This document shows positions 2,957-60,259 of a DNA stretch of 64,000 nucleotides, piece after piece. A model generated the notes under the pieces. It searched no databases, had not been told where the DNA came from, and saw nothing but the letters and a program-made list of their open reading frames with translations. Every line of letters begins with the position of its first letter. The stretch's first letter is position 1. A program made the position numbers and the translations under genes. This DNA is from a virus (lineage: Duplodnaviria; Caudoviricetes). Location of the stretch: IMG/VR virus record IMGVR_UViG_3300037189_030782. The stretch is one strand, 5' to 3'.

Positions 2957-3921
2957 TTGTAAAACGTGTAGCTGCTGCATATGGTTATGTGACAGATGGT
3001 TTCATCAATGCGTTAAGGACTGTGGGTTGCGTTGTACAGAGATGGGATGGCGCAGCTGACACATGGTGGCAATTTAATCCAGACCTATATATAGGATGTG
3101 CTGCTCATCCGCAGGAGCCACCGAAGGGGCATCGAGCGGCAATTGCGTTACATGTAAATCCTCTTGGCCCAATCACTATTCCAGACATTATGGAGACACC
3201 TAAGAATGTTTCCTGGGTTACCAAAATTAATCCGACAGTGGTTTACGGATACGGATTTGATGACGATGTGATTTATTGGGCGCATTGGCAGGAGAAGCAT
3301 GGGTTCAAATGGACAGCTCAATCCACAGCTTGTGACGCTACGATATTTAAAGACCTTAATGCAGTCAAGACCAATGATGTCATTTACCTTGGCGGATATT
3401 GGCCATACAAAGCTAAGAATATCGAACCATATCTATTTCCTGTGTTAGACCACCCTAGAATCAAATCAAAAGTCATGGGTTGGGGCCATTGGCCAGAAAA
3501 ATATAACGTCGAACCATGCCCAGAAGCCGATGGTAATTCATTCCTAAACACTGGTGTAATTGCGCCTTGTATCAGTGAGCCGCACACGCACCAATGGGGT
3601 ATCGACGTTCCGGAGCGGGTGTTTAAAGCTGCTGCGGTAGGGTTATTGCCGATCATAGATTCAGTCCCGACGTTGAAGAGGAAGCTGCCTGGTATCCCGA
3701 TGGCGTGTGAAGGGCCTGATATGTTAGAGCTGGTGTTGCATTATCTTGCCAATCCGGTAGAACAGCAGGCTTTAGCCAAGCAATTGCAAGTGCATGTCTT
3801 GCAGAATCATACTTATCACCATCGAATGGCTAAATTGCTTACTGATATTGCTTTAGTCGATAACAGATACACTAAATTCTTGCAGGTAGCTGAAAAGTTA
3901 AATGGCTATTGCCACCAGTAA
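2944..3921 (+). CDS. Glycosyltransferase, CgeB / Glyco_trans_1_2-like (GT-B)
   Basis: YLGGYW, ERVFKAAAVG, C-terminal NHTYHHRMAKLL signature. Confidence 0.7.
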   Translation: MRVLIVKRVAAAYGYVTDGFINALRTVGCVVQRWDGAADTWWQFNPDLYIGCAAHPQEPPKGHRAAIALHVNPLGPITIPDIMETPKNVSWVTKINPTVVYGYGFDDDVIYWAHWQEKHGFKWTAQSTACDATIFKDLNAVKTNDVIYLGGYWPYKAKNIEPYLFPVLDHPRIKSKVMGWGHWPEKYNVEPCPEADGNSFLNTGVIAPCISEPHTHQWGIDVPERVFKAAAVGLLPIIDSVPTLKRKLPGIPMACEGPDMLELVLHYLANPVEQQALAKQLQVHVLQNHTYHHRMAKLLTDIALVDNRYTKFLQVAEKLNGYCHQ

Positions 3922-40830: not shown

Positions 40831-43265
40831 TGGATACGCCTGGGCTATACTACAATAAATTAATACGTGAGCGGTCTACCCCAATAGCCGAACGCTTTCC
40901 TGGTTTCTATCGTGCCATGGTTGTTGACACAAATGATCCATTAAACATGGGGCGTATTCGATTCCTATGCCCAGAAATGCACAATAGTAATATGTCGGTA
41001 GCTGATGCGCCGTTCGCTGTCCCAGCACCGGGTTTTGGTGGTCCGCGGAGCGGAATATTCAGCAACCCTTGTGTCGGGGATGGCGTTTGGATCTCGCTAG
41101 AAAAGCAACATCCATTCGGCCCAATTTGGTTTGCAGGCGCTGATCCTACTAGACAGCGTTATTACACGCGCTTCCAAGTCACCAATCCGAGCCCAGTAAG
41201 TTTGAGTTTTAATGCTGAGCCGCAGGGTCCACCTGAGGATTATGATCCCGATTATCTGCCAAAAGACGGCAGACCTATGAATTTCGGTTACACCGACCGC
41301 TATGGCACGACTGTAATCAGTAGTGCAGTGGGGTTTTTCCCGGTTACTCACACTCTTGCAGACCCTCCTGCGGAGTATGACCCGTACGCTTCTGCTGCAT
41401 ATAATAACGCAAAAGCTAAACCTGAAGTTAATTCTCCTGATAGAAAATATCATGCTGAAATTACTAAATATGGCAATATTTTTCAGTTAAGTGATGTAGG
41501 TTACTACTGGCATAAAAGCGATGATACTTCGTCATTCGGTGAATTTGTTGGCGATCCTGCTGTAGATGAGCCGTTTGAAGATCTAAGATTTAAGTATATT
41601 CAAAGACTTTTAAATGAAGGCCAAGCCAGCACTGCTTCTGGCGGCATGGAGGTGCCTGGTGCCGATCAAAGAAAGATTTCGCTCCTCTCACGCTATGGTC
41701 ATAAATGGGAACAACGTGATGTCGGATATGCTCAACCTGGACCTATGTTAAATTCTGCTAGGCAGAATGAATATGGGCAGGGCCAATTCTTGAGTTTAGA
41801 ATCGCAGAACGACATGCGGTGGCTGAAGTGGCGTAGCAAAGCAGGCAATCTTTATCAAGCTTCTGATGTGGGATACGATCCAGCTTTTAATATTAATATT
41901 AGGAAGACTAATTTAGAAGACGCAGGATATGGTTCTGAAAAAGAAGACCAATATTTTGCTAATAAAGATATGCGCATGACCAGAATCGTCACCCCAGGTG
42001 GGCTGAAATTTGTATTGGATGATCGTGGCGCAGATGTTGCTGATCCTATTGGTAATCCATGGCCGTGTAGCAATGGATTCATGTTAAAAGGCCGTAGACC
42101 AGCTGGATCGTTTGGCATAAAACCTGCATCCGGAGAGAGAGCAACTGCCGTAGCAACGATATCGGAAGGGCGAATTACCGCCATAGAGATCATTAATCCT
42201 GGCAGTATGTACGAGGACCCACCGAAGGTCAGCATTACTGATCCTAACCGCAGCGGCAAGGGGGCGGTTGCTAGAGCTGTGGTTGTTGATGGTTTTACAG
42301 TAAGCATCATCTTAATTGCTTCGGGTGCTTCATATGAAGAAGCAGTTGTCGAGATTGAACCACCGCCGTATGCTCGTGGTTTCTATGTTGAAGCGAACGA
42401 AAATGATTTGAGTAACCATCTGACTATTGGTTCGCCACTTGGATCAGTCTTTGAGCTTAATGATAGGTATCAATATAGTATCATTACTAACGGCCTAGGT
42501 AAGAAATATACCATGCCGTGGCAAGGCATACAGGAGAATGAATTCCTGCGATCGCCTACGATGGTTAATAGCCCAGAATCAACATCATATCACTTAAAGC
42601 TCGATTTACAGAACGAATATTTAAGGCTTAAAACAAGGGGCGGTCAGGGGCCAGGTCCAGAGATTGATAGGGGTGGACCAGTTAACCCTACTGGTGTGAC
42701 TGACGGTATTCAAGCTGGGCTAGAAGCTCACGACGGCCAAAAAGGTGATGGCCCTTGGGTAGAGCTGGTGGACAGCGAAGCTCGTGGGTTTTGGTTTAGT
42801 AAAAAACATAACATAGGCGTGTGGCGTGGGAAAAAAGGCAAAAGGACTTATTTTATTATTGACGATTCTAATGACACGATAAGCATCGTTAATGGAGCTC
42901 CCACTGGAACTATTGAAATATACAGCGCTGGCAATATTAACATGAGAGCTGAGAAGCGTATAAACATGTACGCAGGTCAAGGCATCAGCATGTCTACACC
43001 TCAGAGCATGGTTTTGTCAGGCGGAGCAGCTAAGATTGGAATGGAAGGAATCGGGGTGCATGTCACTGGGTTACCGTCAATCGGTCTAATAAGTGCACCG
43101 ATCATACCGCCTCCAGTACCAAATATACCTGGTAAGCTAGAGCCGACTGACCGTGGCGCTACTTATAATGGGCCGTTCGAATCATGCCCGGATGCAGAGA
43201 TTGAGCATCAGCTTGATTCGTTATTCAGTCAAGTAGACGGCTGGCTCCCTGGCTTTGCGAGGTAA
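40830..43265 (+). CDS. Baseplate central spike (gp5 / VgrG-like)
   Basis: OB-fold YRAMVVDTNDPLNMGRIRF, PCVGDGVWI; beta-helix-like C-terminus. Confidence 0.85.
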   Translation: MDTPGLYYNKLIRERSTPIAERFPGFYRAMVVDTNDPLNMGRIRFLCPEMHNSNMSVADAPFAVPAPGFGGPRSGIFSNPCVGDGVWISLEKQHPFGPIWFAGADPTRQRYYTRFQVTNPSPVSLSFNAEPQGPPEDYDPDYLPKDGRPMNFGYTDRYGTTVISSAVGFFPVTHTLADPPAEYDPYASAAYNNAKAKPEVNSPDRKYHAEITKYGNIFQLSDVGYYWHKSDDTSSFGEFVGDPAVDEPFEDLRFKYIQRLLNEGQASTASGGMEVPGADQRKISLLSRYGHKWEQRDVGYAQPGPMLNSARQNEYGQGQFLSLESQNDMRWLKWRSKAGNLYQASDVGYDPAFNINIRKTNLEDAGYGSEKEDQYFANKDMRMTRIVTPGGLKFVLDDRGADVADPIGNPWPCSNGFMLKGRRPAGSFGIKPASGERATAVATISEGRITAIEIINPGSMYEDPPKVSITDPNRSGKGAVARAVVVDGFTVSIILIASGASYEEAVVEIEPPPYARGFYVEANENDLSNHLTIGSPLGSVFELNDRYQYSIITNGLGKKYTMPWQGIQENEFLRSPTMVNSPESTSYHLKLDLQNEYLRLKTRGGQGPGPEIDRGGPVNPTGVTDGIQAGLEAHDGQKGDGPWVELVDSEARGFWFSKKHNIGVWRGKKGKRTYFIIDDSNDTISIVNGAPTGTIEIYSAGNINMRAEKRINMYAGQGISMSTPQSMVLSGGAAKIGMEGIGVHVTGLPSIGLISAPIIPPPVPNIPGKLEPTDRGATYNGPFESCPDAEIEHQLDSLFSQVDGWLPGFAR

Positions 43266-43266
43266 A

Positions 43267-43986
43267 ATGATAATTAAATTCCCCACTGGATTCTATTCTC
43301 GAAGCCAGTTTACGCAGAATATCACATTTACTGTTAGTTCAGCTATGCCGTTCTTCGGAAGTAGCAATATAGCTAAGGTCCCAGAGGGCATCATTGCTCA
43401 AAACCCTAGAGCTCAACAGGGCACTATCATTTCTAGTAGGCCTCAATTCGGCCAACAAATCGCAACTGTCACAAAGGCAAATGCTGCCGCTACAGGGTCG
43501 ACCACAAAAAAATATGCGTATGGTCAAGCCATTGAACTAACGCCTCCGGTACCAGTTGCTAGCGTTGAACAGATGTACGTCTCAACTGGCGTTGAATATC
43601 TACATGACCAAAATGTGTTAGACCTGCAAAGCTTTGGTCTAACTTTTGTAGAGTCTAATTCTCTGACATTTAGTGGGCTTGAAGCGTTTGAGCAGCTGCG
43701 GGTGCAGTTAAGCCAAGCTATTGCTGCAAGGAAGGACGCTGAACTTGGCATAGGACTAGCTAAGACTAACCTTGGCGATTGCGAAAAAACGTTGGCGGCG
43801 GCGAAAGTCATTGGCAGTACACTGATAGGGCCCACGCAATATGACGAAATCATCAAGACCTTAGAAGCTAAAAAGCAACAGTTGCTGGCAGAAATCACTG
43901 CCCAAACTATCATCGCTAATGAGACTGCGCTAAATGCATCGAAGTTGCGTAATGATCTATTAACCGTAGCCACTCTGGTGAACTAA
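43267..43986 (+). CDS. Hypothetical baseplate-region protein with coiled coil
   Basis: In operon; heptad-rich C-terminal half. Confidence 0.7.
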   Translation: MIIKFPTGFYSRSQFTQNITFTVSSAMPFFGSSNIAKVPEGIIAQNPRAQQGTIISSRPQFGQQIATVTKANAAATGSTTKKYAYGQAIELTPPVPVASVEQMYVSTGVEYLHDQNVLDLQSFGLTFVESNSLTFSGLEAFEQLRVQLSQAIAARKDAELGIGLAKTNLGDCEKTLAAAKVIGSTLIGPTQYDEIIKTLEAKKQQLLAEITAQTIIANETALNASKLRNDLLTVATLVN

Positions 43987-44363
43987 TGGCAAGTGTATAT
44001 GGTTACAATCCTCCGTTCTATGACGGCAAGTATTCGATCTTGCCTAGGCAGGAAGATGAACGCCTGATAAAGAATGACATTTTGCAATTGCTGCTAACGG
44101 TGCCCGGCGAGAGGTACTACAAGCCTGCTTTTGGCGTTGGCATCAGGAATTATTTGTTTGAGCCATTAGACAACGTGCTCTTAAACAGACTCAGATTATC
44201 GATTATTGATCAGATCAGTAAGAATGAACCTAGAGTCATTAACGTCCGAGTGACACTTACGCCTGATGAAGCGCGTAATGGATTAAATATTCAGATTTTT
44301 TCGAATATGAGAAATCAGCCGAACACGTTCATAAATATCGAACAATTCTTCACGAGGGGATGA
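43986..44363 (+). CDS. Baseplate wedge / sheath initiator (gp25 / GPW-like)
   Basis: LLLTVPGERYYKPAFGVGIRNYLFEP, NEPRV. Confidence 0.92.
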   Translation: MASVYGYNPPFYDGKYSILPRQEDERLIKNDILQLLLTVPGERYYKPAFGVGIRNYLFEPLDNVLLNRLRLSIIDQISKNEPRVINVRVTLTPDEARNGLNIQIFSNMRNQPNTFINIEQFFTRG

Positions 44364-44364
44364 C

Positions 44365-46050
44365 ATGGCTGACGCAATAATCACCTTGCCTAACAATTCT
44401 GTTAACGATCAGTTGGTGAAACAGTATGGCGCAGGATCCATCTATTTTCAATTACCACCGGATCCACAACAGATAGGATTATTAACACCAGACAGCAGCT
44501 TACGTTCGCTCGATTTCAGTGGGCTAGACTTTGATACTGCGCGACAGGTGTTATTAGAATACATTAAGACGTACTTTCCAGATAAATTTAATGACTTTGT
44601 AGCTGCAAATGGAATCGTAATGATGACAGAGTTGGTGGCCAGTGCGGTCGCCAAGCTAAGCTTAAGATCTGATCTACTGGCGCAAGAAGCGACGCTAGCC
44701 ACAGCCACGCAAGAGGAATCGGTTTTAAATCATTTAAGTCTGATTAACCAAAAAATTCTACGGCAAACAGCCGCCACCGTAGATTTTGAATGTGTGGTCA
44801 GCAGAATCGCTAGCAGTGACATCAGGATAAATGCTGGAACGAGCTTTAATATCGCTGGAGCTGATGGCAAGAGATTGATTTATGAAGTTTACAAGGCGCC
44901 TGATGATTGGACCAGTCAAATTATCATACCAAGTGGTAAAAAGGGCACTATTGCATTCGGTATCGAAGGTCAATTCACGCAACCAGTAAGCTATTCTTCA
45001 GATGGGACAGCTAACCAATCATTTACTATAAGAGACAATAACATTTTATCTTATCCCGTGTTCATTAAAGTTTCTAATGGGCGCGATATCATAGATTACA
45101 CCGCAATAGATTATCCAATTCAAAAAGCCGGACCCAATGATACGGTCGCTGAGACCATATTCTATGGTGACCGTATGGTGGTAAATTTTGGTGATAATCG
45201 GACTGGCAAAATACCGGCGAGCGGAAGCAGCATTTTAATAAGGTATAGAGTTGGCGGAGGATTAAGGGGTAGGATATCCGCTAACACCATCAGTCAAACC
45301 AACCAGTATGTGTCTGACCCACCGCAATCTTTGCTGGTCAATGTGACTTTCAGTAATGTCACATCGAGTCAGGGCGGTACAGACAAAGAATCTATCGAGG
45401 ACGCAAAGCGACGAGCGCCTAAAGATTTCTCATTGCACGACAGGATCGTTACGATCAGCGATTATAGTCAATTCGCTAAGACGTTTGCTAGTCCTGTATA
45501 TGGAGCTGTGGCAAAAGCAACAGCTATCTGCAGGACTGACATAAATGCTAACTTAGTTGAAGTATATATCTTAGCATTTGGTAAGGATGCACTGGAGCTA
45601 CCAAGTTTGGGTCTTAGAGACGGCTTGAGCAGCAAGATAAGGTTATACAATAATGCTACTGATACTGTTGAGGTTCTGGGCGGCAGGTTAAAGGCGGTAG
45701 ACATCAAAGCTAGCATCATTATTAGTCGCACTGCCGATGGCACTATTGTAAGGCAGGAAGTAGAACGGACTATCAATGAATTCTTTAATTATAATAACTG
45801 GGAACTTGGTGAGGGCTTGTTTTTAAGCAACTTTATTAACACATTAGAGGGTATCGATGGCATTCAGTATGTAGACATGTATGCGCCAAATAGAAATATT
45901 CTTGCCACTAATGAAGTGTTTAACGAAGGCACCGGAACCGCCGGGCATGATCCTTATTTAGTTGGTTTAAACGAATTGATATCTCTAGGCAATAGCCAGA
46001 TTAGTTATTTCTACGAGAAAGTGAGCAATCAACCAACCGTTAGGAGTTAA
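44365..46050 (+). CDS. Baseplate wedge protein (gp6 / baseplate J-like)
   Basis: DFSGLDFD, FNDF, YRVGGG, GGTDKESIE, RIVTISDY. Confidence 0.9.
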   Translation: MADAIITLPNNSVNDQLVKQYGAGSIYFQLPPDPQQIGLLTPDSSLRSLDFSGLDFDTARQVLLEYIKTYFPDKFNDFVAANGIVMMTELVASAVAKLSLRSDLLAQEATLATATQEESVLNHLSLINQKILRQTAATVDFECVVSRIASSDIRINAGTSFNIAGADGKRLIYEVYKAPDDWTSQIIIPSGKKGTIAFGIEGQFTQPVSYSSDGTANQSFTIRDNNILSYPVFIKVSNGRDIIDYTAIDYPIQKAGPNDTVAETIFYGDRMVVNFGDNRTGKIPASGSSILIRYRVGGGLRGRISANTISQTNQYVSDPPQSLLVNVTFSNVTSSQGGTDKESIEDAKRRAPKDFSLHDRIVTISDYSQFAKTFASPVYGAVAKATAICRTDINANLVEVYILAFGKDALELPSLGLRDGLSSKIRLYNNATDTVEVLGGRLKAVDIKASIIISRTADGTIVRQEVERTINEFFNYNNWELGEGLFLSNFINTLEGIDGIQYVDMYAPNRNILATNEVFNEGTGTAGHDPYLVGLNELISLGNSQISYFYEKVSNQPTVRS

Positions 46051-46051
46051 G

Positions 46052-46444
46052 ATGCATAAAATTTGGGGCACGACTGAGCAGGTCTATCATAGCCCAACGG
46101 TGTCACGTCACAGCATTTCTATTAATGCAAATCATCATTGCAGTATACATTACCACAAGTATAAGACTAATATATTTGCAATCGACTCTGGCGAGCTAGC
46201 TGTAATAAATTATGAGGGTCTAAACTCTAGTTTTGTACTCTTAACGGCTGGCGATTATTACAGTGTTCCACCATTGCTGGTACACTCATTCTACGCTATC
46301 TCGAACGTCACTGCACACGAGATCTATTGTGCTCAATTTGGACATCAAGTTGATGAGCAAGATATTGTCAGATTTAATGAGGGTGGAGTGTGTTTAGACT
46401 TGGAGCAGTTTGTTAGGAATATAAGACATCATAAGAACAGATGA
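46052..46444 (+). CDS. Cupin-domain protein
   Basis: KIWGTTE, CSIHYHKYKTNIF, VPPLLVHSF cupin motifs. Confidence 0.8.
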   Translation: MHKIWGTTEQVYHSPTVSRHSISINANHHCSIHYHKYKTNIFAIDSGELAVINYEGLNSSFVLLTAGDYYSVPPLLVHSFYAISNVTAHEIYCAQFGHQVDEQDIVRFNEGGVCLDLEQFVRNIRHHKNR

Positions 46445-46466
46445 CCAAATGGACGTCATCGTTTTA

Positions 46467-47574
46467 TTACGGTGTATTTGGGGCTTTATAGACTATGGCG
46501 CTGCCGCCGATCTTCTCAGCGGCCTTTTGTAAGGCGAGGTCAAGTATATGCTTGGCCTTTCCAAAAACAATGGACTTGTGCTCTGGCGGAATCATATCAC
46601 CATACTTATCTTGTAGAGTCGAGTCTATTTTCGAATTGATCATGCGGCGCATATTGCCAAGATGCTTAGTAAGGTCTGCACGATATGCTTGTTCCTTATG
46701 TGCAACTAGGCTGGGATTAGCAGCTGGTGTTAAGCGTAGCAGAAAATCATAAAAGTAATGTTGGCGTTGCTCTAACGGTAATCGTGTGTTGAATAGCTTT
46801 TGATTTAAGAAATCTCTAACAGACGGCGCCTTACCAGCCATTGCTGCCTTGATCTGCGTGGCGAAGGCTGTAGCTAGCGGCGTGTCCAAACGTTCTATGG
46901 ATTCAAGTGCATTATGTATGCCACCATGACGGATCTTGTTATCTAAAGAAACTAGATAGGGTAACAATTGTTTTACGTCCGCTCGACCTGTGGTCGACAT
47001 AGTCGCTTGTTGGGCCGCTTGTAGGGCCGCTTGTTTGGCCGCTTCTTGGCTGCCTTTTTTATATCGATAGTAGTTGTTAACGAAATAAGCTGCTGATCTT
47101 TGTCCTACTTCTAAATCGTAGATGATTGATATATAGTATAATGCGACATAGGGCTCCTCCCATTCGTCCATCTCTTTTCGCACTAATGGTTCTTCGATGG
47201 CTTGCCTAGAAGGATCGCTGCCTCGTAACACAGAGTCTGCTCTAACTACATTGGCAAGAATCGCCGCTAAAACTGGCGGTAAATTTTTAATTATTTGATT
47301 CGCAGTAGCTGTAGCGGCTGATTTACCTGTTAGATTTTTCTCGACTTCAGCCATCGCAGCTTGGACCGCAGCGCTATTGCCAAGGGCCACTTTGTAATGG
47401 GAAAATGACTTTACTGGTATGTCGGTATCAAAGCGATTACCATCCCGAGAGGCCGAGCGGTCATACATTAATCCCTTTTGTGCTTTCTTATAAGCACCAC
47501 TGGTCTCATAGGCCAGTTTTCCAATCCTGAGGCATAGCTTGTTGATTCGCTGTAGTATCAAAGAGCCATAGCTA
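46467..47574 (-). CDS. Hypothetical protein of segment A (C-terminal half of the apparently fused 811-aa ORF)
   Basis: Open frame with segment-A codon style (GCG, CGC); no motif recognised. Confidence 0.6.
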
Positions 47575-47621
47575 TCATCCTCATCCTCATCCTCATCCTC
47601 ATCCTCATCCTCATCCTCATC
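47575..47621. repeat. (TCATCC)7+ microsatellite encoding poly-(Asp-Glu); composition boundary
   Basis: Seven perfect hexamers 47575-47616 plus TCATC. Confidence 0.95.
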
Positions 47622-48902
47622 TACAATTACAATTTCTTGCTCTACAACAGCACTATGGGCATCAACAGCTTCTGGAAATTCTTCCCGCCACTGATCCAGA
47701 GTATCCTTTAGACTATCAGAATCTTTGAGCGCATGGTTTTCTAAAACAAGCTTCAATAATTCCAAGTAAACTGGATCAAGCTGAAAAGAGACGTCTTCAC
47801 CAAGAATATCAACAACACCATCCTTATCGATAATTGACTGGATAGTGGCCAAAACTTTCTTAATACTCTTGATACCGGCTCTGGCGTTTGAATTTTCTTC
47901 AACACCAACTTCGGCCATAGCTTGCTTCAAATTTTTGGAAGAAGCGATTGGCTTTGTCTTCGATTTCTTATTCTGAATCTCTTTTTCTCGTTCTTCAGTC
48001 CTGTCAATGACCTTCTTTGACTGTCGAAGCAAGGTTTCATCGTTATTACTTTCTGCAATAACTTTTTTTGTCTCAGCCCTACCTCTTTTATTTTTAATTG
48101 CGTCTAGCTGTTTGTCCAACTTTGAGGTTTTAGCCTTATGGCTTTCCTGTGCATTGACAATAGCAGCACTTAAAACTTCCGATCTCTTTTCAAGATCGTC
48201 AATCTTTAAAAGTTGGGAGGCTACGCTTCTCTTGATTTTGTCTTCACAAAGCTGAGACAACGTATCTTCGTCAATTTTTTCAAGAAGTTCATCTGTTTCA
48301 TGAAGCCATTTTGAATCTCTTTGCAGGATTTCAAGAATCTGATCGTCACTGGCTCCATACAAACGGAATTCCCGCACAGCAGCCACTTCATGACCGTCCG
48401 TCAGGTTGATGCGATTCTTATTTTCTGCCCATGCGAGCGTTGCAGCTTCAAGATCGCTTGCACAGCTAAATATCTGGCAGACAACGTATTCGTATGCAAT
48501 GTCAGCAGAAACCATTTCTCTTTCAGAAGTAGTTTCTCCAAATTTGCTTTCTCTTGGATCAATTACCATCTCTTTTTTAGAGATGAGATAGTCCAAGGCT
48601 CTATACCTACGATCACCACCAACAAGCTGGGGGTGTGCATTTTCACTATCGCCAACCCAACGGCAAATCAAGGGATTCAAAAGCGTTCTGTGCTTAATGT
48701 TTTCCCTTAGGTCCGCAGACAAAGACCTATCTGTAAGGGTTTCGGTGCCGTTCTGCGTTAAAAGTCTTGGGTTAGAAAATACATAATCCGAAGATTCTTC
48801 CACTTTGTCGGTGGTTATAATTTTTGAAAATTTAACTTTGAAGAGGGAACCGTGGAGATGTTCAATACCGTCAATTAAACCGAAAGAATTTGCCTTTTTC
48901 AT
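47575..48902 (-). CDS. ParB/Srx-like N-terminal domain protein with coiled coil and acidic tail (segment B half of the fused ORF)
   Basis: LRENIKHRTLLNPLICR...LVGGDRRYRAL (ParB GxRR box), AWAENKNRINL. Confidence 0.75.
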
Positions 48903-48944
48903 CGAAAAGTCCTTTTTTCTGTAAAGGTTGAAGAAATCAAAAAA

Positions 48945-49580
48945 TCAAAATTCGTATCCCTTGGTTTTTGAAAAGGGTTTGCGGCAGCGTATCAAGTTGG
49001 TTGTTTCATACTCCTTTTCACCCAAACTCTCAATACCGACATTCTTTTTTCTTAACAATAATCCTTCTAGCTGTGGGTTGTCTAAAGATTCATCAAATCT
49101 AGAAGAAAAGTTGTCATAGAAAGTTTCAGCCATCCAGTGAGATGGCGATATCTCTAATGCGATTCCTGACCTACTCTTTTTTGTGGGGCTTCCACAAATT
49201 GAATTCAAAATTTCAAGTCGCTCAACTTGCGTTGGCTTAAAAAACAAGTATCTGCCAGCTTGCAACACATCAAAGAAAATTATTTCATTGGTGGCATTAA
49301 TGTCTTTGTTCATTAATTCACCATCAAGCCAATATTCTTTGTTTTGCTCAAGATTCAAGCTATCTAATAGCTCATCCCGCCTTTTGCTTTCAAACTGGAA
49401 TTTTGAAAAAGCAGTGCCGTGTCTAGTCCCAACAGTAACTTCTTTATTGCAAGAAATATGCAGAACTATTCTGCTGCCCCTAAACTTTCTTTGTGCTACC
49501 CAATCTCCAGTTTCTTCATAGTAACGAAGATCCGTAGGAAGCATTTTGCCTTTGGGTCTGGGCGGGAAAATAATCTTCAT
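48945..49580 (-). CDS. ATP-dependent ligase adenylation domain only
   Basis: WVAQRKFRG (motif I), LDGEL (III), FFDV (IIIa), EGLLLR (IV), RCRK (V); no OB domain. Confidence 0.75.
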   Translation of the reverse strand: MKIIFPPRPKGKMLPTDLRYYEETGDWVAQRKFRGSRIVLHISCNKEVTVGTRHGTAFSKFQFESKRRDELLDSLNLEQNKEYWLDGELMNKDINATNEIIFFDVLQAGRYLFFKPTQVERLEILNSICGSPTKKSRSGIALEISPSHWMAETFYDNFSSRFDESLDNPQLEGLLLRKKNVGIESLGEKEYETTNLIRCRKPFSKTKGYEF

Positions 49581-49651
49581 AGTGATTTAACCCTCCCTCC
49601 CCAGTTTAAGGTAGCCTACCACCTTGAAATCCTTTGGTTGGCTGGGGGAAT

Positions 49652-49680
49652 ATGATAGCACAGATTTTTAGCTTGTTAAG
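49652..49680 (-). promoter_or_regulatory. Sigma70-like promoter TTAACA-N16-TATCAT with extended -10
   Basis: Minus strand CTTAACAAGCTAAAAATCTGTGCTATCAT; same architecture as four other segment-B sites. Confidence 0.6.
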
Positions 49681-49751
49681 TCCATTTTTCCCGAAAAATA
49701 CTGAGATTTTTTGCCTCTAATCTGCCGCATAAACCCCAAACAGCCCAGATT

Positions 49752-50387
49752 CTAATTGCTATCGCAAATTTTAAAAATGCTCCCACAGACCAAGCATTTA
49801 GCACGGAGAGGATTAGAACTTTTAATGCCCCTTCCACATCTAACCGAGTTGTAGGGACTTGGGCAATCACATTCGTATTTTAGAAAAAATGCTTTTTTAT
49901 TTTTTGAATTTGAGACTAAGGTGCCTCTGTCTATTTTTTCCCATTGAAAAGCATTTAATTCACAAAGAATTTTAGAATTATTTTCTGTGAATGGAATTCT
50001 GATAAACTGCGGGAGTAAGGCGTTCCTAGGAACTTCTGTGCTGAGAACAGACCATCCTTGTGCCTTGTGTTTAACAACAATGAAGCCGATACTCAAAGCA
50101 CAGTCAGCAAAAGCGTTTTTATGATAAAAATTTCTTCCAACATCAACGATTCTTTGTTGATGGTTAAAAATATGAATCATTTCATGGCACATACTAATAA
50201 AAAAATCTTCTTTAGTAGTGTACCTTGCACCAGAACCTAGCCTTAAATGATTATCTTTCCAAGAAAATAAAAAATTTTCTTGTGGAAGAATACAAAGAGG
50301 AACCTTTTGGATTCTTCCTGAGAAAAAAGATTTATTGATTGAAGAAAATAAGTTTTCTATTTGAACCAATAAATCAGGTTCTTTCAT
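49752..50387 (-). CDS. SprT-like zinc metalloprotease with C-terminal zinc ribbon
   Basis: CHEMIH (HExxH), YHKNAF, KYECDC...KCLVCG. Confidence 0.8.
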
Positions 50388-50565
50388 AGCTCTTTTTTCT
50401 TTCAGCTTCCTTTATTGCTTCATAAACTTCGCTCCTATGCACTGGTATGCGATCTGGAGCTTCTATGCCTAATCTAACGGTGTCACCCCTAATGTCTACG
50501 ATAAAAATTCTGACATTGTCGCCAATAACAACACTTTCATCCTTTTTCCTGCTTAAAACTAACAT
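50374..50565 (-). CDS. csrA: Carbon storage regulator CsrA
   Basis: [48 protein letters not shown]. Confidence 0.95.
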
Positions 50566-50605
50566 CAGAAATTCCTTTTTCGATGGAAAAAAACAAACCC
50601 AAGGA

Positions 50606-50634
50606 ATGATAACACATTCACAAGAAAAATCAAG
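50606..50634 (-). promoter_or_regulatory. Promoter upstream of csrA, TTGATT-N16-TATCAT
   Basis: Minus strand CTTGATTTTTCTTGTGAATGTGTTATCAT. Confidence 0.6.
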
Positions 50635-50636
50635 AC

Positions 50637-50669
50637 AAAAAAACCACTGAGGTTTCCCCCAGTGGTTTT
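50637..50669 (-). terminator. Rho-independent terminator
   Basis: Minus strand AAAACCACTGGGG-GAAA-CCTCAGTGGTTTT followed by further T residues. Confidence 0.85.
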
Positions 50670-50693
50670 ATTTACGAATAGTTTTATTTCAAC

Positions 50694-50849
50694 TTAGAAT
50701 AATCTTTGGCCACAGACTGTTACAGCTGCGACCCAAGCTCCGGCCTTGCCGTTGCAAATTCCAAGAGCCTGAGCAATTCTGCTGCAACGTGGATAAAAGT
50801 ATTTCCAAGAAGCAGTTGTGTAGGTTCCATTTGGTTTTAAGCATCTCAT
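50694..50849 (-). CDS. 51-aa Cys-containing peptide, absent from the ORF track
   Basis: AAGGAGG SD, MRCLKPNGTYTTASWKYFYPRCSRIAQALGICNGKAGAWVAAVTVCGQRLF, own terminator. Confidence 0.7.
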   Translation of the reverse strand: MRCLKPNGTYTTASWKYFYPRCSRIAQALGICNGKAGAWVAAVTVCGQRLF

Positions 50850-50894
50850 GAGATATCCTCCTTAATAAATGTTTGAAGCTATACTCCAACATAA

Positions 50895-51695
50895 TTATAT
50901 ATTAGTTTTCTGCATATCTTTGTCATGTTGTTCTCTAGCTTTTCGCAATATTTCCTTGACTTTTCTATTCTTATCAAATTGTTGTAGTGTGCCTCTGCCG
51001 ATGTGAGAAACCCAGCTAGAACCACAAACTCCTTGCTTAAAACCTTTAGAATTCATTCTCTTGGCAAACTCTTCTGCTTCGCAACCAGCATAAGGGTATT
51101 CTTTAAATAAACCAACATGTTTAAATAGATCTCTGTGAGCAAGTGCACAGTAAAGAGGCAAAAACTCATTTTTTAAAATGTAATTTTCTCCACTAAAAGA
51201 CCTTTTGCTTTTTAAGACATCGAAATCTACTACTGGATTATCTGTTTTTGGGGAAACCATTTTCACATTATCTTTTTTGAACGACTCCAAAAAATTGCCT
51301 AAATTTAAAAGCCAATCTTTGCTATCCAGCGAAACGTCAGAGTGCATTAATAAAACATATGGTATTTCTTTTGTTGAATTATTTTCAAATATCCAAGGAT
51401 TTGACAAAGCAAAGTTTATTGAGGATCCAAAACCTTTATTTTGTCTTTGTCTTAAGCACCGTAAGCCAGGAACCTTAGATTTTTGTATTTGTGTGTGAAA
51501 TTCGTTGTTGGAAGAACCGTCATCAACCAAAGTAACAAGGTACCTATTAGAATAAACGGTATTAAAAATGTCCTGAACTAAATTGCTTACAAACGAGTGC
51601 TTTCCATAAAAAGGAATTATTATTTCGACCTCTTTTTTGGCGAATAACTCGGTCCTTATTGTCCTATTGATCATTATTTTGTTTTCTTCCGCCAT
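50895..51695 (-). CDS. Glycosyltransferase family 2
   Basis: IIIPFYG, LVDDGS, NKGFGSSIN, LMHSDV, WVSHIG. Confidence 0.88.
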   Translation of the reverse strand: MAEENKIMINRTIRTELFAKKEVEIIIPFYGKHSFVSNLVQDIFNTVYSNRYLVTLVDDGSSNNEFHTQIQKSKVPGLRCLRQRQNKGFGSSINFALSNPWIFENNSTKEIPYVLLMHSDVSLDSKDWLLNLGNFLESFKKDNVKMVSPKTDNPVVDFDVLKSKRSFSGENYILKNEFLPLYCALAHRDLFKHVGLFKEYPYAGCEAEEFAKRMNSKGFKQGVCGSSWVSHIGRGTLQQFDKNRKVKEILRKAREQHDKDMQKTNI

Positions 51696-51759
51696 CAAGG
51701 CTCCTACTAAATTTAAAAGAAAATGACTGTTATATATTAGAGTTATATGGGAAAGAAAA

Positions 51760-52677
51760 ATGAATCAAAAAAGCATTAAAGAGTACATAAGAGCATTAGA
51801 TCACATTAGTAGTTTTCTGAAAACTCTTCTAGAAGAAGAGAATAAAATTGTACCTTTTCAAAAAGGTGAAAGGGACAGGCTATCAGAAATAACAGAACTA
51901 AGGATGTTGGCTAAATCAGATGTTTGGCCTGAGGCGGTGCCGCCAGAACTAATATGCAACGATATAGAAGAAGAAAAAATGTCAAGAGCCGCTGGCATTG
52001 TTCAAGACTTCATAGCAATGGATCTAAAAGAAAAATCATTCTTGGACTTTGGATGTGGAGAAGGCCACGTTCCATACGTTGCTGCCACTCTATATGAATC
52101 TAAAAATGTTGTTGGATATGATATAAAAAACCAAGACTGGGCAGCTCTTGACCCACACGATGAATTAAAATTCACGACAGAATGGGAAGATGTTAGAAGA
52201 AAAGGACCATATGATATTATTTTAATAAACGATGTGCTTGATCACTGCAAAGATCCAGCTTCTACACTACAAATGATCCAAGAAGTCAAAAAGCCTATCG
52301 ATGGGCAAGTTTTTCTAAGAATACACCCTTGGACAAGTCGCCATGGATCACATCTTTATAAACAATTAAATAAAGCCTATCTACATTTAGTTTTTACAAA
52401 AGATGAGCTGTATGCAATGGGGCTAGAACCTCCAGAAATTTTAAGAATAATAAACCCAATCAAAACATATAAAAGATTCATCAAAGATGCAGGGTTTACA
52501 ATACTCAAAGAAAGTGTGGTAACTCAACCAGTAGAGTTGTTCTTCACCCACACCCCAGAAGTACTTCGAAGAATAAAATCCAATTGGAGAAATAGCGACG
52601 AACCAAAATTAGCTTCTGGTGAGTTGTTTCCAAGAGAAATATTAGAAATACAGTTTATAGACTTTACTTTGATCTAA
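51760..52677 (+). CDS. Class I SAM-dependent methyltransferase
   Basis: FLDFGCGEG, VVGYDI, YDIILINDVLDH. Confidence 0.88.
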   Translation: MNQKSIKEYIRALDHISSFLKTLLEEENKIVPFQKGERDRLSEITELRMLAKSDVWPEAVPPELICNDIEEEKMSRAAGIVQDFIAMDLKEKSFLDFGCGEGHVPYVAATLYESKNVVGYDIKNQDWAALDPHDELKFTTEWEDVRRKGPYDIILINDVLDHCKDPASTLQMIQEVKKPIDGQVFLRIHPWTSRHGSHLYKQLNKAYLHLVFTKDELYAMGLEPPEILRIINPIKTYKRFIKDAGFTILKESVVTQPVELFFTHTPEVLRRIKSNWRNSDEPKLASGELFPREILEIQFIDFTLI

Positions 52678-53842
52678 GATGATTTATTGCGTGATTCCAA
52701 TCATCCTGTGCACCTCCTTGTATACTTAGTTCTTGTCTTTCTTTAAACCTTTCAAATGCAGCAAATTCTATATCCGAGTGACTGAAGTTTTTCTCTAATC
52801 TAGCTATTGCCTCTTCGAAGTCATTACCTTGTTCAAAATACTCTTTGAGTCTAAAGATTTGATCTAGATTCAAGCCATCAGATTTTTCCGCCCAGTCTTG
52901 AACTAAAATCTTTTTTCTTATAGATAAATTTGGGTTTGAAAAGCACCTTGTGTACTTAAATCTGGAAGGTCTGTTTCTCAAGGCTGAATCTACTTTTGAA
53001 ATGTCGTTTACAGTCATTATAAAAACTACGTTTTCATAAGTGGTATAAACTCCATCTAATCCGTTCAAGATTATGTCATAAGTAAATTTGATTGTACGGT
53101 TTCCTTCACCACCCATTATACATTTTCTTCCATGAAAATAATTATCAAAGTCTTCAAATAAAACTATGCACTTTTTTGGAATCTGCGAAAACATAAGAAG
53201 CAAATCCTGATTGTTCCAATCAGGATCTAGCGTAAAGATCATTATGGGCAATTTGTGCTTTGTAGAAAGATACTTTATAAATGAAGTTTTCCCGTTTCCA
53301 GGTGGCCCATAAAAAAGGGCACTAGTGGTTGATCTTTTAAGTTGAGATACCTCTTCAACCTCTCTATCAAAATCAACCCAAAGAGAATCATCAACAATAG
53401 GAGCTGGAAAAGTCTTCTTTAAAGAACCGATTTTATCAGCACCGTAGGGTAGCATAAGTTCTACAGGAACTCCCAAAGTATAAAACTGCATTTCTTTTAT
53501 TCTGCCATGTAGATACTTTTTTAATTTAGAATATTGCCAACGAAAACAAAAAATAAAAGTCAAATGGTCTTTGCCGTGATATCCTGCTTGCATCAATCTT
53601 TCTGTTCGATCTATGTAAAACCAAGGAGAACCATTAAAAAAACAAAAAGCAGAAAAAATAACGGGATGACGGTTTTCAGTTACAAATTCTTCGTGAATAA
53701 TTATCTTTTTCTCTTCTTTACAAAGCTCGTACAGAGTTTTAAAAGTATTAGTGTCTATTCGGGTTTCTATCAATAGAACATACTTAAAAACAGCCCAAAT
53801 CCCTACAAAAGATGCAAGAAGAGTAAAAACCGTTGACCACAT
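52664..53842 (-). CDS. Membrane-anchored AAA+ ATPase (BCS1-like) with DUF2934-like C-terminal motif
   Basis: N-terminal TM helix, YGPPGNGKTS, LFEDFD, DSALRNRPSRF; tail IEFAAFERFKER...DDWNHA. Confidence 0.85.
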   Translation of the reverse strand: MWSTVFTLLASFVGIWAVFKYVLLIETRIDTNTFKTLYELCKEEKKIIIHEEFVTENRHPVIFSAFCFFNGSPWFYIDRTERLMQAGYHGKDHLTFIFCFRWQYSKLKKYLHGRIKEMQFYTLGVPVELMLPYGADKIGSLKKTFPAPIVDDSLWVDFDREVEEVSQLKRSTTSALFYGPPGNGKTSFIKYLSTKHKLPIMIFTLDPDWNNQDLLLMFSQIPKKCIVLFEDFDNYFHGRKCIMGGEGNRTIKFTYDIILNGLDGVYTTYENVVFIMTVNDISKVDSALRNRPSRFKYTRCFSNPNLSIRKKILVQDWAEKSDGLNLDQIFRLKEYFEQGNDFEEAIARLEKNFSHSDIEFAAFERFKERQELSIQGGAQDDWNHAINHLRSK

Positions 53843-53956
53843 AAAATCTTCTTATTGAGGGGTCACCAAAAAAAGCAATTTAGTTCTGGGGTTCGATTTA
53901 GTCAATACCGAAAAGAAATTACATATATATTTAGAAATAGTTTAAATGGAAGCAAT

Positions 53957-54688
53957 ATGATTAAATTTAAAGAATGGTTTCAAATATCTGAGAGTAAAGG
54001 TATACGGTTAACCGATGAAATCGTGTCCCAAATTAAATCGTCTATCGACAAAATTTATCAAACAGCAAAAGCTATTAAAAAAGAGCCCGAGGGAGAGGTT
54101 TTTGATGTAGCAATAATAAAGTATAACGATCCATACTTTAAAGATAGGCAACGTGAAATAAACATACACGTTGTAAACAATAGCTATGAAAACAATAATG
54201 GGTCATTTAGAATAGGATACGGCATACAAATCAATGTTGCTCATGTTGAAGAAGAAGAACTAACTCCTAGGTGGATTGAAAGAGTAGTAGCCCATGAATT
54301 AATACACTCTATGGACCCAAAAATGAGTAACTTTAATACTTTTAAAAACGTCAAAAACTACGATAACAAAGGTGGAATCGATTACTACACTCATCCATTC
54401 GAATTCGATGCATATACAGGACAGCTAGCCTACTCAATAACAACTGCTGCGGATAGACTAAAAGGTACTGATAAAGAACCGATATTAAAAAAACAGTTAG
54501 ATGACACATTAAGATTTATATCTAATCCTGAGAAATCTAAAGCCGAAAAAATTTACGGAGTTATTGGTGATCCCGAGTACTGGAAGTATTATCACATATA
54601 CTTCGCACACGGATCATCGCAACAAAAGCGTAAAATGTATCAAAGAATATATAAAGCTGTGATAGATGCTAAGGCAAATTTGGGCTAA
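53957..54688 (+). CDS. Zincin-like HExxH protein
   Basis: VAHELIHSMD...PFEFDAY; N-terminus MIKFKEWF. Confidence 0.7.
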   Translation: MIKFKEWFQISESKGIRLTDEIVSQIKSSIDKIYQTAKAIKKEPEGEVFDVAIIKYNDPYFKDRQREINIHVVNNSYENNNGSFRIGYGIQINVAHVEEEELTPRWIERVVAHELIHSMDPKMSNFNTFKNVKNYDNKGGIDYYTHPFEFDAYTGQLAYSITTAADRLKGTDKEPILKKQLDDTLRFISNPEKSKAEKIYGVIGDPEYWKYYHIYFAHGSSQQKRKMYQRIYKAVIDAKANLG

Positions 54689-59131: not shown

Positions 59132-60259
59132 CTAAAATCCTATTTTTTTCTTATCAATTTCTTTCTTATAATTGTCTTCTGCATTATAAATATCTGCAAG
59201 CGTTAAGGGAATATCAGTTTTTCTATCCGAATTTATTTTTTCAAATATTTTATTACAATTATCTGCTGGCAGTTCCTTGAATTCGTGTTCTAGCATTAAA
59301 CGACCTTTTCTAAGCAAAGCAGAATCTATTTTATCTCTAGATGTATTAAAGGTTGCTATAACGAATATATTAAGACAATCGCCCAACAAACCATCTGTGA
59401 TATTTAATATGTTTGAAATTGCTGAATTTTCTTGTTCTTCTCTGCTTTTTAAAACTTTCTCTGCGTCTTCCAAAAGAAATATAGAATCTTTATAGTCTGT
59501 CATAAAGCTTAGAAAAGAAGGGCTGGTTATTTCTTCAGTGAATGCAGAAGGAAGATAAATAATCTTTCTGTCTACCTTAGAAGAAAGATATTTAATAAAT
59601 GTGCTTTTTCCTGTTCCAGGCTTTCCAGAAAATAAAATCAAACCAGATTTCTTTTTTTCTAATATGTCTATTATTTTTGCTTCCTTGCCTGCAAGCTCCT
59701 CGCCATAATTAAGTTCTATGTCTAAATCATCTTCAGTTGGCAAGACAATATCAAACCTTTGGACATCTAGCACACCTTCCACCTTACACATAAGGTGAAT
59801 GCTTTTAGTGTTTTTTTCTTTTACGTAATCAAATAGAGACTTTATTTTAAAAAGAGTTTCTTCTTGTGAATAAAAAACTCTGCAATAGTTGCCATCATCA
59901 GGACAATCCTGATATGTTTCCCCATAAGCACGAGAAAAACTAGACAGTCTTGGTTGCTTTAAAACACAAATTACTGCATCCTCAAACTCAAAAGCTACCT
60001 CTGAATCGTTTGCTTCTGTTCCAAAGGAAAGCTCACCCTTATCAAGTTTATCAGAAGTGTATTTAAATATTTGTTTTGCACCAATGCCTATAAGTTTATC
60101 AAGGATAGAAGTACTTATTAAAGATGTATTTGAATAATAATTAGGTTGTTGAGAGAATTTATATAAATAATAATAGAAGTAATTAAAATAAGTTGTATGA
60201 TCAGCAGTTTTGGCAGCGTAGGGTCTAAACGACGAATCTACTCTAGGAGAAAAATCCAT
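59132..60259 (-). CDS. AAA+ ATPase (BCS1-like)
   Basis: FSGKPGTGKST, LLEDAE, LNITDGLLGD, IDSALLRKGRL, KKKIGF tail. Confidence 0.9.
   Translation of the reverse strand: MDFSPRVDSSFRPYAAKTADHTTYFNYFYYYLYKFSQQPNYYSNTSLISTSILDKLIGIGAKQIFKYTSDKLDKGELSFGTEANDSEVAFEFEDAVICVLKQPRLSSFSRAYGETYQDCPDDGNYCRVFYSQEETLFKIKSLFDYVKEKNTKSIHLMCKVEGVLDVQRFDIVLPTEDDLDIELNYGEELAGKEAKIIDILEKKKSGLILFSGKPGTGKSTFIKYLSSKVDRKIIYLPSAFTEEITSPSFLSFMTDYKDSIFLLEDAEKVLKSREEQENSAISNILNITDGLLGDCLNIFVIATFNTSRDKIDSALLRKGRLMLEHEFKELPADNCNKIFEKINSDRKTDIPLTLADIYNAEDNYKKEIDKKKIGF

Follow-up and report, generated by a model that had tools for sequence, protein, structure and literature searches.

The 64,000-nt stretch of viral DNA analysed here (hereafter the window; IMG/VR virus record IMGVR_UViG_3300037189_030782, Duplodnaviria, Caudoviricetes) is very probably an assembly chimera of two different large freshwater phages, and the 811-residue gene that spans the join on the minus strand (46467–48902) is almost certainly an assembly artefact. 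The segment left of the join (phage A, 1–47574) has a GC content of 0.44 and represents a myovirus region of the huge-phage type, and the segment to its right (phage B, 47622–64000) has a GC content of 0.36 and corresponds to an accessory or early region. Comparison with public sequences shows the two halves of the open reading frame (ORF) as separate genes everywhere else, and it places both the breakpoints and the composition change in a repeat between them. The join itself appears to have been made in software, not in a phage.

This repeat, at 47575–47621 on the minus strand, is delimited by TRF and by the end points of blastn alignments, and it encodes an Asp-Glu (DE) repeat found in both source genes. 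According to TRF it is a perfect (GATGAG)n tract with a period of 6, 7.8 copies and 100% matches; the period-6 run measures exactly 47 nt and encodes ORF residues 428–443 (DEDEDEDEDEDEDEDD), in agreement with the first-pass annotation, which had pointed to a 47-bp perfect hexamer repeat in the middle of the ORF. It is also the sole run of at least eight acidic codons in any frame of the whole window. Within the C-terminal half of the ORF, a 12-nt tandem repeat at 47004–47049 (3.8 copies, 85% matches) encodes a AAKQAALQAAQQA stretch; one 12-nt unit at 47012 is absent from sequencing run X3, and so the gene contains a second coding repeat that is length-polymorphic.

Homologue searches with the whole ORF recovered its halves one at a time. 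A collection of 5.8 billion proteins returned ten matches, all 454–493 aa long and each covering about half of the ORF: nine match the N-terminal half and one (P0003) the C-terminal half. Using phmmer against 1.84 billion representative proteins, 232 matches were obtained, of which the best 150 are all at most 474 aa long and again confined to a single half; 148 of these 150 are ParB-like, and the other two (466 and 474 aa) cover the other half only. The first-pass annotation had named full-length 811-aa homologues as what would overturn its reading. None exists in the 5.8-billion-protein collection or among the best 150 of the 232 matches to the 1.84 billion representatives, every listed match being at most 493 aa long and restricted to one half, and so the full-length two-module homologues that would mark a natural fusion were not found elsewhere. 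In PHROGs, neither the complete ORF nor either half alone had a match.

The N-terminal half (47622–48902, minus strand, 427 codons) is the 5′ part of a ParB/Noc-like gene of phage B and lacks most of the acidic C-terminal tail. At 91% identity it matches residues 1–419 of P0002, a protein for which the IMG/VR related-locus search returned no match. Nine close homologues match the ORF from residue 1 to about residue 430 and then continue into their own acidic tails of 60–80 residues. The half carries a ParB/Srx N-terminal domain with an arginine-rich GxxRxxA box, the GGDRRYRA version of which is invariant in 10 homologues; the Pfam match to ParB_N is weak (18.1 bits against a threshold of 26.3), and a sequence profile search of the PDB is marginal (Spo0J, E = 0.36). 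The ParB assignment is therefore owed to the fold search. For a model built from ten homologues (mean pLDDT 74), the top Foldseek matches are Noc, ParB, Spo0J and KorB, with a best E of 8e-6 and a probability of 1.0, and the alignment spans 190–235 columns, which suggests that the central domain of the predicted fold is covered.

Compared with the ParB/Noc/KorB family, whose members Spo0J (1vz0), Noc (7nfu), Myxococcus xanthus ParB (7bnk) and KorB (8qa8) are these top matches, the N-terminal half shares the ParB/Srx-type domain and the GGDRRYRA arginine patch followed by helical domains, yet it differs in scoring below the Pfam threshold, in its long coiled coil and in the 60–80-aa acidic tail of its native homologues. 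The ParB-like relatives are located on very large contigs of phage-like gene content. An earlier proposal that the poly-DE tract is a natural ParB tail thus holds, given the ParB/Noc-like fold and the 60–80 acidic residues at the end of all nine close homologues, with one addition: a native acidic tract, in the form of an internal linker, exists in the other gene as well, meaning that the repeat is common to both source genes.

That other gene is represented in the window by its 3′ part (46467–47574, minus strand, about 368 codons), the native gene being 466–478 aa long and of unassigned function; neither Pfam nor PHROGs gave a family assignment for this C-terminal half. ORF residues 437–811 match residues 92–466 of P0003 (466 aa) at 96% identity, and ahead of residue 92 P0003 has an N-terminal segment of its own (91 aa) and a short EDEDEDD tract. 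P0003 itself had no usable match in the ESM Atlas and only one partial match, at 30%, in the IMG/VR related-locus search. The more distant P0167 (474 aa; 29% identity) can be aligned with P0003 over the full length, the alignment taking in the N-terminal 91 aa and an acidic linker in the equivalent place. Judged from these alignments, the architecture of N-segment, acidic linker and C-domain is conserved, and the window's version of the gene has lost its native 91-aa N-terminal segment.

The complete native gene is present in five left-type contigs (L002, L003, L017, L018 and L021), which come from at least three metagenomes and are 97.7–99.4% identical to the left side of the window; L021 additionally encodes a baseplate J protein identical to that of the window, and its native gene is 473 aa long. 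All five cross their own acidic tract (21–69 nt, 7–23 residues) into one native sequence, which has no match within the window. Beyond the tract, these contigs hold the conserved 91-aa N-terminal segment and then upstream genes missing from the window, and their GC stays at 0.44–0.45 for 13 kb, versus 0.355 in the window. L017 (17.6 kb) and L018 (68.6 kb), both recovered by a left-flank search of JGI metagenome contigs, have a longer perfect tract of 63–69 nt. Among these strains, 97.7–99.4% identical in their flanks, the coding microsatellite that forms the acidic linker of phage A is polymorphic, giving EDEVEDD in L021, EDEDEDD in L002 and L003, and about 23 acidic residues in L017 and L018 (coordinates L002:2440–2470; L017:13232–13294; L018, minus strand, ~1977–2045; L021 ~3690–3712). 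In the distant homologue P0167, the acidic linker at this position is longer and non-repetitive.

The left side of the window comprises glycan genes, a DnaB helicase, tail sheath and baseplate genes, with tail sheath, baseplate wedge and DnaB recognized by PHROGs, and positions 1–46597 are 98.9% identical to the IMG/VR record G001, whose GC ranges from 0.41 to 0.46 across all 75 kb. A baseplate J relative at 88% amino acid identity sits on a 254.7-kb contig, where the baseplate module is followed by ribonucleotide reductase (RNR) and helicase genes and no ParB-like gene is found at that place. In the window, the baseplate module is closed by a 130-aa cupin-like protein (46052–46444, plus strand; PHROG ‘cysteine dioxygenase’), which is conserved in the 254-kb relative and whose orthologue in L016 has weak cupin Pfam matches. 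As a further observation, G001 ends at window position 46597, the Logan contig of run X5 breaks at 46555–46562 and from 46594 onward strain variants are clustered; this may be a second site, some 1 kb short of the repeat, at which phage A assemblies tend to break.

On the right side, the phage B segment holds a ligase-like gene, CsrA, GT2, a methyltransferase, AAA ATPases and HNH (PHROGs). The 185,736-bp scaffold L019 is 100% identical to window positions 59580–47575 over 12,006 nt, continues with further repeat units and ends in 60–61 nt of pure repeat, longer than the 47 nt of the window. The right side is also syntenic with L001 (89% nucleotide identity) and with the more distant L005–L010, among them a 444-kb contig. 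In these relatives, the ParB-like gene is followed by its acidic tail and conserved small genes, never by baseplate genes; for the exact native tail of phage B the sole source is the 89% relative L001, since the identical L019 does not extend past the repeat. Immediately upstream, the ParB-like gene is adjoined by a run of two 211-aa genes, one of them ligase-like, and a CsrA homologue (48945–50565, minus strand). This run is conserved from L001 (89%) to the distant relatives on 123-kb and 444-kb contigs (L005 and L008), each of which has a second CsrA a few genes further downstream.

Composition changes across the repeat, as the first-pass annotation had concluded from six hand counts of G+C in 60-nt lines, all of which are exact (37 and 30 on the left; 22, 23, 11 and 16 on the right). 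GC is 0.440 left of the repeat versus 0.359 to its right. Under a two-segment order-2 Markov model, the best change point falls at 47462–47572, within about 100 nt of the repeat, and moving it by 1 kb to either side lowers the log-likelihood by about 30 units. When codon-usage models trained on left-hand versus right-hand genes were scored along the single ORF, their log-ratio switched to left-like at about residue 450. Both composition and codon usage thus change abruptly at the breakpoint. Likewise, the claim that long A/T runs become common on the right proved accurate: homopolymer runs of at least 6 nt occur at 0.82/kb on the left and 5.01/kb on the right, where shuffled sequences give 0.74 and 1.75, i.e. 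they are six times commoner on the right and far above what composition leads one to expect. In raw sliding GC profiles the drop appears gradual because the ParB-like gene and its neighbour (GC3 ~0.36) are GC-richer than the rest of the right-hand genome, as they natively are in L001 and L019, too.

Two other features had been put forward in the same context. The flip in gene polarity exists (at ~46450), but it is 1.1 kb away from the repeat, on the left, and belongs to the native layout of phage A, with matching gene order in L018 and L021; it was therefore rejected as evidence of a join. A search for 11-mers repeated at least five times, as candidates for a promoter family, found none.

The position of the breakpoint is fixed independently by alignments to the two kinds of relatives. 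In blastn comparisons, the match to the right-type L001 runs as far as 47570 and that to the left-type L002 and L003 as far as 47598, both end points falling in or at the tract 47575–47621. The breakpoint hence falls on an exact repeat that both source genomes contain: the left-type contigs carry 21–69 nt of it and the right-type scaffold L019 at least 60 nt. Alternative contigs with the same repeat, which had been suggested as a check, do exist, and these independent assemblies of each side either continue differently past the breakpoint, as do the left-type contigs and the right-type relatives L001 and L005–L010, or stop in the repeat, as does L019.

No contig elsewhere was seen to bridge the two sides. 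Searched for as a gapped pattern (left flank, repeat, right flank), the junction had no match in JGI metagenome contigs or IMG/VR; as the window's own record may be excluded from these collections, zero matches means that the junction receives no independent support from them and leaves the source data untouched. The right-flank pattern and the left-flank pattern, searched singly, likewise had no match in IMG/VR. Among Logan contigs, an 8.2-kb contig from run X1 is identical to the right side, and contigs from X2 (15.5 kb), X3 (16.2 kb) and X5 (1.0 kb) match the left side; over 42000–54000, the contigs of all four runs break off some 30 nt inside the repeat without bridging it, these contigs being built with k = 31 and hence unable to cross a 47-nt perfect repeat. 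The parts that they leave uncovered (42000–47613 for X1; 47614–54000 for X2, X3 and X5) are not counted as evidence, although two separate genomes would produce such a pattern, and neither is the observation that the best run holds 0.54 of the words and that none holds both halves.

How such a join could arise is readily pictured. Phage A and phage B each carry a perfect (GATGAG)n tract that is read in the same codon phase as Asp-Glu repeats; it forms the internal acidic linker of the 466–478-aa protein in phage A and the start of the acidic C-terminal tail of the ParB/Noc-like protein in phage B. In both populations the tract exceeds common assembler word sizes, and the two assembly graphs would therefore merge there into a six-node cycle, which the assembler, or a later contig-joining step, could exit onto the wrong genome. 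Because the repeat preserves codon phase, the join would automatically be in frame and create a false 811-aa ORF. Any exit from the cycle keeps the frame; the open reading frame therefore says nothing about selection, and its intactness was rejected as a sign of it. With a word size of about 43–48, going round the cycle once would give the 47-nt tract, just as k = 55 would fit the 60–61 nt of L019 and k = 31 the 30 nt of the Logan contigs.

Metagenome assemblers are known to produce chimeric contigs where different genomes have words in common, and the merging of two assembly graphs is the classic condition for this (PMC7299287). As in the inter-genome chimeras described there, the breakpoint lies in exact shared sequence, composition changes abruptly and independent assemblies break at this point or continue differently (PMC7299287). 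In the window, by contrast, the shared sequence is neither a conserved gene nor a mobile element but a coding hexanucleotide microsatellite in two unrelated genes, and the resulting chimera yields a clean in-frame fusion ORF that resembles a real multidomain protein. Indeed, like natural domain fusions and mosaic phage genes, it combines two unrelated modules in one frame through a low-complexity linker, yet in contrast to natural fusions it stands alone in the databases searched and deprives both partners of conserved parts.

Phage A strains are present in two metagenomes that also contain a distant species of the phage B lineage, whose ParB-like protein is 56% identical (L022 and L008 in JGI 3300027747, L021 and L009 in JGI 3300010334), and such shared habitats make both co-assembly chimeras and real encounters plausible. 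It is nevertheless unlikely that the junction is real, i.e. that co-infecting phages recombined at the shared coding microsatellite to give a hybrid genome with an in-frame ParB fusion. Both populations carry perfect tracts of at least 47 nt and are found in the same lakes and studies, phage genomes are generally mosaic and the ORF is intact, but an intact frame comes automatically at a hexamer repeat of the same phase, and neither JGI metagenome contigs nor IMG/VR hold another contig with this junction. Moreover, the flanks are almost identical to the separately assembled parents (100% over 12 kb on the right, three differences in 5.6 kb on the left), so a real event would have to be very recent; it would also have removed conserved parts of both proteins and fused about 80 kb from one huge phage with a large portion of a second one, a combination for which completeness of the gene set finds no support. 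If two unrelated huge phages had in fact recombined in nature at an Asp-Glu coding microsatellite, producing a hybrid genome and a fused ParB-like protein, which we regard as quite improbable, coding microsatellites would be hot spots for illegitimate exchange between phages.

There is even less to recommend the contig as the correct sequence of a single genome that has one compositionally distinct side and a native 811-aa protein. Both lineages are huge phages (with relatives of 254 kb and 444 kb) in which regional differences in GC are conceivable, yet this reading is very improbable given that no 811-aa homologue was found, near-identical left-type contigs continue differently, the change point falls inside one ORF at the repeat, and G001 together with the native continuation holds GC near 0.44 over about 90 kb. 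That both genes belong to one genome, with the sequence between their two DE tracts deleted or collapsed, would account for the same repeat occurring in both in the same phase; it is nonetheless scarcely credible, as the native flanks of the two genes are dissimilar to each other and to the window, the two sides are 8 GC points apart over tens of kb each, and the neighbourhoods of the two genes are unrelated in the 254-kb and 444-kb relatives. Misassembly, which the first-pass annotation had considered most likely, remains the favoured explanation, supported by the missing fused homologue, the differing independent continuations and the lack of a spanning contig in other public collections.

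As a chimera of two phages, the window is of small biological value in itself, because neither the fusion protein nor the apparent gene neighbourhood exists. The contig from which it derives (0.2–1 Mb size class) mixes two phages, which makes inferences about genome size, host and lifestyle unsafe, and the same applies to functional links drawn across 47.6 kb; an initial warning against such links was correct, the two sides belonging to different phages. More generally, the case illustrates a failure mode missed by quality checks at the level of genes, in which a coding microsatellite present in the same phase in two genomes leaves an open and plausible multidomain ORF at the misjoin. Features left of 47575 and right of 47621 should accordingly be assigned to different phages.
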